Shown in pieces: positions 48,269-63,464 of a stretch of 64,000 nt of DNA (positions are counted from its first letter, which is position 1; every line of letters begins with the position of its first letter). A program made the translations under genes and the position numbers. The DNA comes from a phage. The stretch is from the NCBI GenBank assembly GCA_011911785.1, contig GCA_011911785.1_4084.1; one strand, written 5' to 3'. The notes under the pieces are model-generated. The model worked only from the letters and a program-made list of their open reading frames with translations, was not told the origin of the DNA and made no database searches.

Positions 48269-48459
48269 ACGTCGAGTTGATTGAAAAAAAGTACTGTACA
48301 AATTGCAATACAGCGTATACAATACAAGGTATGTTAGTTTGTACAACATGTCAGGCAACAGAAACAGCAACATTTTTGGTTGATGACCGATTCAGTGATT
48401 TGAAACAATTCAAAGCTAATCGCAATCTCCGTAACTTTAGTGATATGAATAAGGAATGA
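48265..48459 (+). CDS. small zinc-ribbon protein (64 aa)
   Basis: CTNC...CTTC; ATGA overlap. Confidence 0.5.
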   Translation: MNVELIEKKYCTNCNTAYTIQGMLVCTTCQATETATFLVDDRFSDLKQFKANRNLRNFSDMNKE

Positions 48460-48893
48460 ATATGAATCTTGAACAAGTAATCCGTAACAACCCATTCTTC
48501 GCAGAAAACCCTTCTCGTGTAATTGAAGCGATTAAAGTTGAAGAGCTAATGATTACCGTCAAATATAAAGAAGAAGGTGATGAAATTAGTAGCGTAGTAT
48601 GTGCTCTTCGTGCACCTTTCCGTAAAGAAGCAGCTAAGAAACCAGCATATGTACTATCTATCTGCTTGGGTTGTGTAGTTAAACTGGTTGTTGATGAAAA
48701 TAGTTTCAACATCAAGGTTGCACCAACTAATGATGATGAGAATGTTGATCTCAACTTTGATGGTGGGTTGCCAGAAGAAGAATTCTTCCAACAGTCACTT
48801 GTTGTAGATTTCCGTTCAGTAACTTATGACCATATCAAACTAATCAATGAAATGGTTGATATCGTCGCTAAGTTCGAAGAAGAAACCGCATAA
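48456..48893 (+). CDS. EE-x-FQ-x-SL motif family protein (member 1)
   Basis: C-proximal PEEEFFQQSLVVDF motif shared with 10 other ORFs. Confidence 0.55.
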   Translation: MNMNLEQVIRNNPFFAENPSRVIEAIKVEELMITVKYKEEGDEISSVVCALRAPFRKEAAKKPAYVLSICLGCVVKLVVDENSFNIKVAPTNDDENVDLNFDGGLPEEEFFQQSLVVDFRSVTYDHIKLINEMVDIVAKFEEETA

Positions 48894-48906
48894 TATAAAA
48901 AGAAAT

Positions 48907-48935
48907 AAGGCTCTCAATCGGGAGCCTTATATTCA
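48907..48935 (+). terminator. putative intrinsic terminator
   Basis: AAGGCTC-(8 nt)-GAGCCTT hairpin followed by interrupted T-tract. Confidence 0.45.
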
Positions 48936-48970
48936 TTTGTTAAATAAGACAAAGTAAAGGAGTACTTAAT

Positions 48971-49522
48971 ATGATCGAACAAATTCAAAAATTCACGAAC
49001 CAAATTGTAAATTTCCTAGCAGATAAAGAAGGATTCAGTACTGAAGTTACACATCACGGTGTTAACCTTAACGTTACTGCACCAAGCGGTGATGTAACGT
49101 CATATGACATGTATGAGTTATTGCTTTATACAATGGCAGTACGCAAAATAGGTTCTGATATAGAGCTAAACATCAATACTGATGACAAAGGGAACAATAT
49201 TTTTGCTATTAATACGGATGCTAAACTTGATGTAATTGCAGAAATTCAAAAAATTAACGAGTCATTTATTAATTTCCAACATGATACGATACAATCCGTT
49301 TTTATTGGTCATCAAACATCTGAAAGTGTTTGCCCTTTTTGTGTAATGACTCTCTATAAGAATGGTAATTGGATGCGTCATGATTTGGCTAAAGCTGAAG
49401 TTCTTTATGCCATTACACATGGTATGAAACTTGAACTAGATGACAGTGCTTTTGTCTTTAAGAAACTAAGAAAATTAACACTAGATGTTCAGACTAAATT
49501 AAAAGAACTTAATGATAAATAA
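48971..49522 (+). CDS. hypothetical protein (183 aa)
   Basis: ORF track; AAGGAG RBS. Confidence 0.55.
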   Translation: MIEQIQKFTNQIVNFLADKEGFSTEVTHHGVNLNVTAPSGDVTSYDMYELLLYTMAVRKIGSDIELNINTDDKGNNIFAINTDAKLDVIAEIQKINESFINFQHDTIQSVFIGHQTSESVCPFCVMTLYKNGNWMRHDLAKAEVLYAITHGMKLELDDSAFVFKKLRKLTLDVQTKLKELNDK

Positions 49523-49633
49523 TTATGCCAGTAATGGCTAACATATTATTATGTTATTTTTCCTCCCTTCTATAATAAAATTAATTTATTATATTTTCCA
49601 TTTCTTATTGTACATTTTATATCTTTTCGTACT

Positions 49634-49656
49634 GCCCCTCCCAGGGGCATTTTTTA
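49634..49656 (+). terminator. intrinsic terminator-like hairpin in intergenic region
   Basis: GCCCCT-CCC-AGGGGC followed by ATTTTTTAT; lies 15 nt upstream of the next ATG. Confidence 0.5.
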
Positions 49657-49670
49657 TATTAGGATAAAGT

Positions 49671-50066
49671 ATGTTAGGTAGTAGAATAGGCAGCATCGTC
49701 ACAATTAAACTTTCTTATTATCTAAATGATTTTTCAAAGATCGATTTATCAAAATATCAGCAATCATCATTCTATTATGAATCATCTGAGCATAAATTTT
49801 CTATCAGCAAAGAACCGGTAAAACTAAAGTATCAGGGGGTTGCAGAAAAGAATGAATTCGTGTATGATTATGGTATGGACAAAATTGTATTCACTGAATA
49901 TACTAAGGGTACAAGACCTACATGGAAAGCGGATTATCATAGAAAATCATTCATCAATATACATAAGTATCTTGACGAAGAGCATTACTTTCAACAGTTG
50001 CTTTTGGAGGATTTACCATTCACTATTGATGATCTAAAAACATTATTTAAGTACTATGCGATATAG
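49671..50066 (+). CDS. EE-x-FQ-x-SL motif family protein (member 2)
   Basis: DEEHYFQQLLLEDL motif; AGGA RBS. Confidence 0.55.
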   Translation: MLGSRIGSIVTIKLSYYLNDFSKIDLSKYQQSSFYYESSEHKFSISKEPVKLKYQGVAEKNEFVYDYGMDKIVFTEYTKGTRPTWKADYHRKSFINIHKYLDEEHYFQQLLLEDLPFTIDDLKTLFKYYAI

Positions 50067-50083
50067 TACTAAAGGAGATACAT

Positions 50084-50518
50084 ATGATTATATCATTCAA
50101 AAAAGTACTAAAATATTTCCAAAATAATAAACTTAAAGATATGAAAGTACGTGTCAATTTCTTTGCTAAAAGTGTGTGGTTTTGTACAGAGGATGAAATT
50201 AAGGTTAATGTAAGATTAACTGATTCATATGAAATAATTCGCCTGTACGCAACCATTGATGGTGTGGATACCAAGATATCATACATTTCAACGAGTGGTA
50301 CGTTGATCATGAGTACGCGAGAAAATGAAACTGATACATTCAATGAAATTAAGATAGAAAACATCCATGAAATCACATCTGAAGAGATACTATTTCAACG
50401 TTCACTTGTTGACAATGTACTAGATTTAACATATGATAATATCATACTAATTCACAAACTGCATGATGAGGCAAAAGCGTTTGCTCTAACCAAATTCGGA
50501 GAATTGGATGATAAGTGA
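50084..50518 (+). CDS. EE-x-FQ-x-SL motif family protein (member 3)
   Basis: SEEILFQRSLVDNV motif; AAGGAG RBS. Confidence 0.55.
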   Translation: MIISFKKVLKYFQNNKLKDMKVRVNFFAKSVWFCTEDEIKVNVRLTDSYEIIRLYATIDGVDTKISYISTSGTLIMSTRENETDTFNEIKIENIHEITSEEILFQRSLVDNVLDLTYDNIILIHKLHDEAKAFALTKFGELDDK

Positions 50519-61891: not shown

Positions 61892-61929
61892 AATAAATAG
61901 TTACCTATAGATTAATCTAAGGAGTAACT

Positions 61930-62280
61930 ATGTTTAAAAGTAATCTTAAAGTAGAATTAATTAATAACGAAGGTCAACGTTGGAAAGTTCTAGAAGATCT
62001 AGAATACGAGTATAACGGTATTAAAATTGTTGTTCCCGCAGGTTTCAAAACTGATTTTGCAAGCGTCCCACGTATTCGTGGTATATTTGAACTAGTCGGT
62101 AATATGGGTCACGCCGCAGCAACAATACATGACTACTTGTATAGTACTGGTATGCTATCCCGTAAAGATAGTGATAAGGTGCTACTACAGGCTCTACGTG
62201 CTACTGAAGTTGGTAAGCCACGTAGTATGATTATGTATGCTGGTGTTCGTGTATTCGGTTGGTTGTTTTACAAAAAATAA
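61930..62280 (+). CDS. hypothetical protein, DUF1353-like
   Basis: GFKTDFASVPR motif typical of the phage-associated DUF1353 family; AAGGAG RBS. Confidence 0.5.
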   Translation: MFKSNLKVELINNEGQRWKVLEDLEYEYNGIKIVVPAGFKTDFASVPRIRGIFELVGNMGHAAATIHDYLYSTGMLSRKDSDKVLLQALRATEVGKPRSMIMYAGVRVFGWLFYKK

Positions 62281-62286
62281 AACTAT

Positions 62287-62319
62287 TTATGAGTACTGCA
62301 AGCAGTACTCATTTTTTTT
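62287..62319 (+). terminator. intrinsic terminator
   Basis: ATGAGTACTGC/GCAGTACTCAT hairpin followed by TTTTTTTT. Confidence 0.7.
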
Positions 62320-62333
62320 ACTCCGAGGTACAT

Positions 62334-62549
62334 ATGAAAGTTATTATTAATCCAGCATCAAACTTTTTTGGTGAGGTTTTCGGTGCAGACAGTATTGTGC
62401 ATAATTTTCCACGAATTGAAATCGACGGAATTGAAGTCCAACGATATGGCAACCTGTACTATGTAATAGATGAAAATGGTTCTATTGTACACGACAGTGC
62501 ATTCTTTACCGAAGAAGAGATGAAACACTTGATAGTACTGGACAAATAA
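62334..62549 (+). CDS. hypothetical protein (71 aa)
   Basis: ATG 62334 with GAGG RBS; ORF-track start 62259 lies inside the terminator. Confidence 0.45.
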   Translation: MKVIINPASNFFGEVFGADSIVHNFPRIEIDGIEVQRYGNLYYVIDENGSIVHDSAFFTEEEMKHLIVLDK

Positions 62550-62550
62550 A

Positions 62551-62736
62551 ATGACACTAGATGAATGGCATAAAAGAAACGATAAGCTGTATGAAAATGA
62601 TATTTTCTTCTTCGCATTCGGTGGTCTTGGAAGTATTTTACGTGATAGTGATGATTACTTCAATTCGATCATTAGCTATTATGATTGCTATGGGACTATG
62701 TACGCCATAGCACGAACAACGGGATGTTACAAATGA
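62551..62736 (+). CDS. small protein with MT-x-DEW N-terminus (61 aa)
   Basis: ORF track; N-terminus MTLDEWHKRN resembles the MTH(E/Q)EW repeated genes. Confidence 0.45.
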   Translation: MTLDEWHKRNDKLYENDIFFFAFGGLGSILRDSDDYFNSIISYYDCYGTMYAIARTTGCYK

Positions 62737-62915
62737 CACATCAAGAATGGTTAGATGAATTAAAATTCAAACATGATCATTTTGGCTTTGGTGTACGCCA
62801 GGGTCATTATGATATTTTAAAAGATAAGAACAAGTTTAAATCATTTATCTTGGATGATGATAGTAATCGCTGGTTCATCTATGAGCTTGCGGTTAGAGGT
62901 AAAAAAATTGACTAG
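62733..62915 (+). CDS. MTH(E/Q)EW small protein, copy 1 (60 aa)
   Basis: ATGA overlap with previous stop; paralogue of 63461-63637. Confidence 0.5.
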   Translation: MTHQEWLDELKFKHDHFGFGVRQGHYDILKDKNKFKSFILDDDSNRWFIYELAVRGKKID

Positions 62916-62960
62916 TACTGATATATATGCTATTCTTTTGTTTTAATCAGGAGAACAATA

Positions 62961-63464
62961 ATGCTCATTACGCATGTACCGGAAAGTATTACTGAAATTT
63001 TAAGTAAAATTAATGTTAATGAGTTTGAACGAACCGTTCGAAAACAGGGTACTTATCACTATAAGCACAAAGATGGTGATCATCAAATAAGCTTAGATCA
63101 GAACTATCAAACTCTAACAATTAAAATGGTTACTCGCTGGAATTTCGTTCGTAAAGACACTATTATCTGTGATTTTGGTAAAAATCTACTTAGAAAATGT
63201 TTCTCTGAAACAAATGGCATCTATCCAAACCCGAATAGAATTTTTACATATCGATACATCACAGATGAAGATGTACATTTCCAAGAGAGTTTGGTATGCG
63301 ATAATAAGTACTTTCCCGCATTTTCTGATAATTTGAAGTTAAAAGAACTATATAACTATTTCTTAAACGACAATATCCTGTGGGATGAAGAATTAAAACA
63401 ACGACAAATAGAACGTGAAAAGAAAAAAGTCTGGACTGGCTCACATTGGATGCAACGTAAATGA
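62961..63464 (+). CDS. EE-x-FQ-x-SL motif family protein (member 11)
   Basis: DEDVHFQESLVCDN motif; AGGAG RBS. Confidence 0.55.
   Translation: MLITHVPESITEILSKINVNEFERTVRKQGTYHYKHKDGDHQISLDQNYQTLTIKMVTRWNFVRKDTIICDFGKNLLRKCFSETNGIYPNPNRIFTYRYITDEDVHFQESLVCDNKYFPAFSDNLKLKELYNYFLNDNILWDEELKQRQIEREKKKVWTGSHWMQRK

Follow-up and report, generated by a model that had tools for sequence, protein, structure and literature searches.

A large family of paralogous small proteins with a shared, predicted helical signature in RaK2-like jumbo phages

Eleven paralogous genes in one stretch of phage DNA

The 64,000-nucleotide stretch of phage DNA analyzed here (contig GCA_011911785.1_4084.1 of GenBank assembly GCA_011911785.1; hereafter, the window) carries, between positions 48,456 and 63,464, eleven open reading frames (ORFs) for small proteins that share a motif of the type E-E-x-F-Q-x-S-L. 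They belong to a very large gene family specific to the lineage of the RaK2-like jumbo phages, of which the window holds only a part. A preliminary description of the window, made from the letters alone, had singled them out as an array of paralogs; all were present at the starts that it gave, with lengths of 126–167 amino acids (aa), and its motif strings were recovered verbatim, each 94–120 residues from the N-terminus (Table 1, where members are identified by their start positions, as in the text). The region 48,456–56,144 was 97.4% identical over its whole length to Escherichia phage A4 (ON286972, 355.5 kb, genus Asteriusvirus), and a further 36 genomes of jumbo coliphages and Salmonella phages gave only partial matches. 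To judge from its sequence, the source phage is an Asteriusvirus jumbo coliphage, and we used A4 as a proxy for the genome parts beyond the window. Every gene of interest is annotated as a hypothetical protein in the A4 record; according to the phAPEC6 abstract, about 83% of the genes in these 350-kb phages have no assigned function.

BLASTP comparisons between member pairs were too weak to decide (best E 2e-5, with alignments centered on the motif), and profiles were therefore used. In leave-one-out tests, a ten-member profile placed the eleventh member at the top of the 168 window ORFs (E 1e-10 to 5e-3), whereas the best unrelated window ORF reached only E ~0.01–0.4; the weakest member in these tests was 54861. 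All eleven ORFs matched a 75-sequence profile at E 1e-14 to 1e-27. Since the ORFs had been chosen by their motif, we also sought validation independent of that choice, and the window profile recovered eight further members just downstream in A4. The leave-one-out profiles and this independent recovery of new members establish the proteins as true paralogs, as had been proposed. Neither the 75-sequence profile nor an iterated profile found a twelfth member among the window ORFs, so that the window holds exactly eleven at this sensitivity.

The tight packing noted in the preliminary description was also seen: the junctions are ATGA or short overlaps with Shine–Dalgarno sequences ahead of them. 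A PTH2 gene (50,920–51,330) and a C5 cytosine methyltransferase gene (53,440–54,300) lie among the members, as had been described. Conversely, the tRNA cluster that was said to be interspersed with them is not; the window has a single tRNA (Ser, 63,777–63,866) past the last member, and the cluster sits further downstream in A4, outside the window.

Table 1. Family members and promoter-like sequences in the window
Feature	Position	Strand	Remarks
Family member, 145 aa	48456..48893	+	Motif EEEFFQQSLV; isoelectric point (pI) 4.5; 72% identity to phAPEC6 gp134c
Family member, 131 aa	49671..50066	+	Motif EEHYFQQLLL; opens hypervariable six-gene block; 29% identity to phAPEC6 positional counterpart
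Family member, 144 aa	50084..50518	+	Motif EEILFQRSLV; protein modeled (AlphaFold2, AF2)
Family member, 141 aa	50508..50933	+	Motif EEEFFMVSTL
Family member, 126 aa	51324..51704	+	Motif EEELFQLSLI
Family member, 146 aa	51701..52141	+	Motif EEGYFQESLV; ATGA overlap on both sides
Family member, 140 aa	52138..52560	+	Motif EEELFQLSTI; pI 4.2; closes hypervariable block
Family member, 158 aa	54861..55337	+	Most divergent; leave-one-out E 0.004; E 1e-15 with 75-sequence profile
Family member, 147 aa	55701..56144	+	Motif EEMYFQQLTI; conserved, 94% identity to phAPEC6
Family member, 158 aa	61415..61891	+	Motif EEERFMLSTI; basic C-terminal tail, pI 9.0
Family member, 167 aa	62961..63464	+	Motif DEDVHFQESLV; basic C-terminal tail; without counterpart in phAPEC6 locus
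Sigma-70-like promoter, TTGACA-18-TACAAT	48168..48197	+	Near-consensus; upstream of run holding member 48456
Sigma-70-like promoter, TTGACA-17-TACAAT	54661..54689	+	Near-consensus; upstream of member 54861
Sigma-70-like promoter, TTGATA-17-TATAAT	60791..60819	+	Near-consensus; upstream of 60844 and member 61415

Size and distribution of the family

The profile was iterated over the 779 A4 ORFs of at least 60 aa, with the window used in place of A4 241–279 kb and A4 353–355.5 kb left out. The census converged at 63 hits representing 62 distinct ORFs, all on the plus strand and all alignable on E-E-x-[YFL]-F-Q-x-S-[LT]-[VIL]-x-D, and the best score among reversed and shuffled decoys, four times as numerous, was E 0.004 against a cutoff of 1e-3. 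Set against the 596 annotated features of A4, these 62 members amount to about 10% of its genes. They are small (102–223 aa), soluble proteins with no transmembrane segment. Thirty-six form a near-continuous array at 30.7–59.5 kb, 20 lie at 287.6–331 kb, including the window's eleven, and 6 are scattered. Thus, the earlier count of "at least 11" was right for the window and far too low for the genome. One of the A4 members, A4_348 (37,063–37,599 of piece L006; 178 aa, E 2e-17), is annotated as a "DNA ligase", probably wrongly, since it contains no ligase domain.

The same profiles, trained on no RaK2 sequences, detected at least 40 members in the 150 kb scanned of the 346-kb genome of Klebsiella phage RaK2 (genus Alcyoneusvirus), and these occupy the same two neighborhoods as those of A4. 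In an ordinary homolog search, the 11- and 62-sequence profiles returned close orthologs only; an exhaustive search over representatives was informative. Here, a 17-sequence profile run over 1.84 billion representative proteins gave 77 clusters at E ≤ 1e-3, all of 64–217 aa (most 107–217 aa), nearly all of which carry [ST]-T-E-E-E-[YF]-F-Q-x-S-[LT]-[IV]-x-D followed by T-[FY]-E-D. Structure matches in BFVD, with template modeling (TM) scores of up to 0.88, added Cronobacter phage GAP32, Pectobacterium phage CBB, and Yersinia phage fHe-Yen9-03, and also hit RaK2; tblastn added Erwinia phage Hallingskeid. The motif TEEE[YF]FQ-x-S, searched for as a degenerate DNA pattern, was matched in only two IMG/VR contigs, both of them genuine. 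The presence of members in RaK2, GAP32, CBB, fHe-Yen9-03, Hallingskeid, and an IMG/VR contig indicates that the expansion is old and clade-wide.

In the uncultured 109-kb viral contig IMGVR_UViG_3300007747_000009, about 14 tandem, longer members (113–233 aa) were seen at 94–9257, with motif variants such as LFQLSTIYDD and EHFQYSTIEE; the run is broken by a 135-aa non-family ORF at 5646–6053.

Searches with 11, 75, and 62 members yielded no meaningful match in Pfam, NCBIfam, PADLOC, or the Protein Data Bank (PDB) sequences, in agreement with the earlier remark that the motif belongs to no named domain, and profile searches assigned the members to no characterized family. In PHROGs, the 62 A4 members are dispersed over 44 families that look unrelated, every one of unknown function, with strong individual matches to phrog_12674, 9317, 13866, 17453, and 40 others. 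In the literature, the RaK2 paper reports paralogs making up nearly 10% of the gene products, and the CBB paper lists 22 paralogous ORFs (PMC5259590). A survey of 224 jumbo phages called a ~35-copy zinc-ribbon expansion in Bacillus phage G "unprecedented" (Iyer et al. 2021, PMC7824862); a text search of that survey found no mention of the present family, nor is it described in other papers on Asteriusvirus genomes that were searched. The family is absent from the databases and literature searched, and the term "undescribed" given to it in the preliminary description therefore stands.

Conservation of the motif and the predicted fold

Across 137 sequences, the motif positions are conserved at 99% (F), 92% (E), 89% (Q, otherwise M), 87% (S), 81% (E), and 70% (D), and a Tyr in a central strand of the predicted fold described below is conserved in 76%. 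The conserved Ser is encoded by AGY in 29 cases and TCN in 20, and the conserved Gln by CAG in 32 and CAA in 23. This mixture of synonymous codons, which includes both Ser classes, argues that conservation acts on the protein and not on a DNA repeat. Leave-one-out tests, decoys, and codon usage all speak against compositional bias, which the preliminary description had named as a way in which the motif could mislead. Among the 62 A4 members, the Ser codon class follows the next residue, AGT-ACT occurring with S-T and TCA-TTA with S-L, a pattern that suggests two deep clades within the family.

Family proteins tend to be acidic: their median pI is 4.76, against 5.55 for other ORFs of about their size, and their net charge is −10. 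The exceptions are a few members, 61415 and 62961 among them, whose C-terminal tails are basic. The latter two (61,415–61,891 and 62,961–63,464) constitute a subgroup in which the N-terminus opens with a common P-E-x-h-x-E-[IV]-L and the tail is long and basic (pI 8.7–9.0).

Structure models cover two members, 50084 and 51324. When 75 diverse members were aligned, AlphaFold2 modeled the 50084 protein with a predicted local distance difference test score (pLDDT) of 91 and a predicted TM score of 0.82; with a shallow alignment of 17 sequences, the pLDDT was only 61. The model consists of a helix at residues 5–14, seven strands within 21–91, and helices at 100–109 and 117–142. The helix at 100–109 (EEILFQRSLV) is the motif itself, with a block-mean pLDDT of 96–97. 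A lower-confidence model of 51324 had the same layout but six strands. The family is thus predicted to adopt a single α-β7-α-α domain of ~100–220 aa with a seven-stranded antiparallel sheet. In the preliminary description, the motif was a C-proximal element followed by a tail and preceded by a diverged N-terminal part. The model makes this division misleading: the motif is predicted to be the core helix α2 (the first C-terminal, middle helix), and the diverged N-terminal two-thirds the sheet of the same domain, with the conserved Tyr and a hydrophobic strand pattern upstream of the motif.

The S/T ahead of the motif and the Glu three residues on fit a helix N-capping box. The Y/F, F, S, and L positions share one helix face and the freely variable positions lie on another, as judged from helical periodicity. 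With its N-cap and hydrophobic face, the motif would accordingly characterize the fold and would not be a peptide signal that can be detached from it.

Selection and cassette turnover

Comparison of the family genes with their A4 counterparts gave a ratio of non-synonymous to synonymous divergence (dN/dS) of 0.18 (26.5 synonymous and 20.5 non-synonymous changes), against 0.11 for neighboring genes. The members are functional genes under somewhat relaxed purifying selection. The six adjacent members from 49,671 to 52,560 showed 24–44% identity to their positional counterparts in phAPEC6, whereas the genes flanking this block showed 70–99%. Across 37 genomes, the identity of the 50084 protein was bimodal, at 97.9% in A4 and 25–31% in the other 36. 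This bimodal pattern points to cassette replacement rather than gradual drift. Members 48456, 55701, and 61415 are conserved in phAPEC6 at 72–94%.

Promoters and virion proteins

Near-consensus sigma-70 promoters, defined as matching at least 11 of 12 positions, numbered 13 on the plus strand and 0 on the minus strand between 46 and 64 kb, compared with 0.66 ± 0.81 in shuffled sequences. Genome-wide, they cluster at A4 280–340 kb and 10–40 kb. A comparable promoter-rich region in CBB was assigned to early genes by the authors of that genome (PMC5259590). Terminator-like hairpins are likewise enriched in 46–64 kb (17 found vs 6.7 expected); two of them, at 48,905–48,930 and 49,633–49,649, flank a non-family ORF (48,971–49,522), the first having a terminator-like sequence on both strands.

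All 15 annotated members of the syntenic phAPEC6 locus (gp083c–gp134c; the check left out two unannotated family ORFs there) are missing from the 62 virion proteins identified by mass spectrometry (PMC7247149, Table 1). The virion proteins of RaK2 reportedly map to two other genome clusters (PMC3622015).

Possible function of the family

We propose that the family consists of early, non-structural, mostly acidic host-interaction proteins with paralog-specific targets, acting as stoichiometric binders, inhibitors, or decoys. We infer this from genomic context and give it a probability of roughly 0.45. On this proposal, host sigma-70 RNA polymerase would transcribe the genes early, and the proteins would stay out of the virion. 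Purifying selection would keep the genes, some of which would be exchanged as cassettes between close relatives. Each paralog would bind, inhibit, or act as a stoichiometric decoy of its own target, a protein of the host or of a competitor that differs from one paralog to the next, with the variable sheet and loops making the contact with the target and the conserved helices serving as a scaffold, perhaps as an oligomer or docking interface. The whole array would then be a diversified repertoire for host takeover or counter-defense, comparable to multigene families known from large DNA viruses of eukaryotes. This host-takeover or anti-defense role, which the context suggests, was also the one favored in the preliminary description.

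Several observations weigh against this proposal. PADLOC returned only 3 isolated hits among 75 members, at E > 0.004, and no member matched any characterized protein in the databases searched. The short-range dN/dS against A4 gave no sign of positive selection, the pattern being purifying and not diversifying. The large A4 array at 30–60 kb has fewer promoters, and promoter consensus is the sole basis of the suggested early timing; a transcriptome for phages of this group did not turn up. In the model, buried and exposed residues were assigned from helical periodicity alone. Finally, the near-invariant polar residues (E, E, Q, S, and D, together with the Tyr) exceed what a helix with a structural role alone would normally require. 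An active or docking site common to the paralogs could lie there, and these residues keep open a common-site model, whether of an adaptor or of ligand binding.

The alternative that these polar residues favor is an adaptor with a common dock, in which the conserved helices (E-E, F-Q, S, D) plug all paralogs into one partner, either a host hub or phage ClpA/ClpP-like machinery, and the variable sheet picks the cargoes. Poxvirus ANK/PRANC and F-box families, with their shared dock and variable cargo selection, provide a model for such a design. Extreme polar conservation in the 137 sequences (E 92%, Q 89%, S 87%, D 70%) in an otherwise highly variable protein is consistent with it, as is the fact that A4 encodes ClpA-like and ClpP-like proteins; the genes annotated as ATP-dependent Clp protease, ClpP/crotonase-like protein, protease, and ClpA-like protein lie at A4 88,155–88,850, 95,219–96,829, and 178,050–180,335, and their products as partners for an adaptor-type role are a speculative suggestion. 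However, the motif is predicted to be a helix within the domain, with a pLDDT above 95, and its freely variable positions fall on one stripe only, as for a largely buried helix; moreover, no partner was identified, and phyletic co-occurrence is uninformative in a single clade. We consider this adaptor model unlikely.

A second alternative starts from the fold. The α-β7-α-α topology predicted for the family is shared with p32/gC1qBP/Mam33 (PF02330), and the family proteins might form trimeric acidic doughnuts, possibly hetero-oligomeric, that serve as decoys or chaperones for basic or nucleic acid–binding proteins. A Foldseek search of the PDB placed p32 homologs among the top hits, but the scores (E ~0.1, TM ~0.3) were not significant. 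None of the 137 members hit PF02330, and the PDB profile search found no p32. Homology at the sequence level was rejected by hhalign comparisons with human p32 and with a 12-sequence vertebrate p32 alignment, which gave probabilities of 0.1–0.3%. Furthermore, p32 is a single-copy, trimeric mitochondrial protein of eukaryotes, whereas the present family comprises multi-copy phage proteins, and its acidity (median pI 4.76) is only suggestive of a p32-like acidic face. In the models, therefore, the family resembles p32 in architecture and is not a demonstrable member, and we regard an acidic ring as improbable.

Still less probable, in our estimation, is an immunity array, whose products would neutralize a variety of toxins, for example abortive-infection effectors of the host or toxins of competing elements, and whose layout would be that of bacterial polyimmunity loci. 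Tandem, diversified small α+β proteins with cassette exchange would suit such an array, and Foldseek gave a weak match (probability 0.8, E 0.6) to TriTu, an immunity protein. That structural match is not significant, however, no known immunity family was matched, and no toxin genes were seen adjoining the arrays.

The motif strings (EEYFQ-S, QLSLI, and QLSLV) recall a tobacco etch virus protease–like cleavage site (E-x-x-Y-x-Q/S), a capsid-targeting signal of packaged internal proteins, or the β-clamp-binding motif QL[SD]LF, but the resemblance is one of strings only. All three readings are disfavored by the confident prediction of a helix, rather than of a disordered segment, at the motif, and by the absence of annotated phAPEC6 members from the virion proteome; in the case of the β-clamp motif, position 2 is also variable and the invariant F precedes Q. 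A signal of this kind is very improbable. We exclude an artefact, whether of composition, of chance, or of in-frame translation of a DNA repeat, to which the weak BLASTP scores between members might point, given the leave-one-out tests, decoys, independent recoveries, location of all members on the coding strand, free synonymous codons, and a dN/dS of 0.18.

To return to host-targeting binders, a more ambitious form of this proposal can be outlined, although we hold it doubtful: RaK2-like jumbo phages would devote ~10% of their genes to one unrecognized superfamily, the largest phage multigene family reported, whose members act as combinatorial early host-targeting binders, possibly as p32-like hetero-oligomeric rings or by docking to one machine via the invariant helix, and so set host range or evasion of defense, much as multigene families of giant eukaryotic viruses do.

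Comparison with other multigene families

Multigene families confined to one lineage are a known feature of large viruses. The present case is unusually large and constitutes a new protein superfamily. Like the African swine fever virus MGF360/505 and poxvirus ANK/PRANC families, it consists of tens of diverged tandem paralogs that are non-structural, vary in copy content and alleles between close strains, and carry a short conserved signature on a diverged protein; the fold and the host kingdom differ. Host-range or immune-evasion roles have been shown experimentally for those families. The T4-like hyperplastic regions and internal-protein cassettes are similar in that blocks of small genes with early promoters differ between relatives by replacement and not by gradual divergence. 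The internal proteins of T4 are packaged and have an N-terminal targeting and cleavage signal; in contrast, members of the present family were not detected in virions and their signature is an internal helix. As with the zinc ribbon of Bacillus phage G, a small domain is present in dozens of copies in one jumbo phage lineage (~35 copies for the zinc ribbon; PMC7824862), but the family described here is larger (62), is built on another domain, is not predicted to bind DNA, and is common to several genera.

The expansion of 62 thus exceeds the ~35-copy case called unprecedented in the 224-phage survey. Placing ~62 genes (at least 40 in RaK2) under one fold and signature turns a large fraction of unknown genes into a single experimental problem. 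As a conserved handle on a variable body, the signature offers a way in: mutation of E-E, F-Q, or S should disable all members alike. The cassette-swapped block supplies alleles that vary naturally and can be set against host range. These phages are in development for therapy against pathogenic E. coli and Klebsiella, and a tenth of the proteome with an unknown action on the host matters practically.

Neighboring genes

In this phage, as in A4 and RaK2 (ORF188), the gene for PTH2, a peptidyl-tRNA hydrolase, is embedded in the array; it is missing at that place in phAPEC6. The C5 cytosine methyltransferase of the window is a plain 286-aa protein; its A4 ortholog (L001 13,985–15,883) has 632 aa and contains an intein (Hint + LAGLIDADG) after approximately residue 77. 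Between two family members lies a gene for a DUF1353 protein (61,930–62,280, E 2e-23) without a counterpart in the phAPEC6 locus. Member 62961 is flanked by a second, smaller set of paralogs of 58–63 aa (62,724–62,915, 63,461–63,637, and possibly 62,551–62,736), which share THxEWLDxLKxKxDxFGxG..GHYDIL and have no Pfam match.

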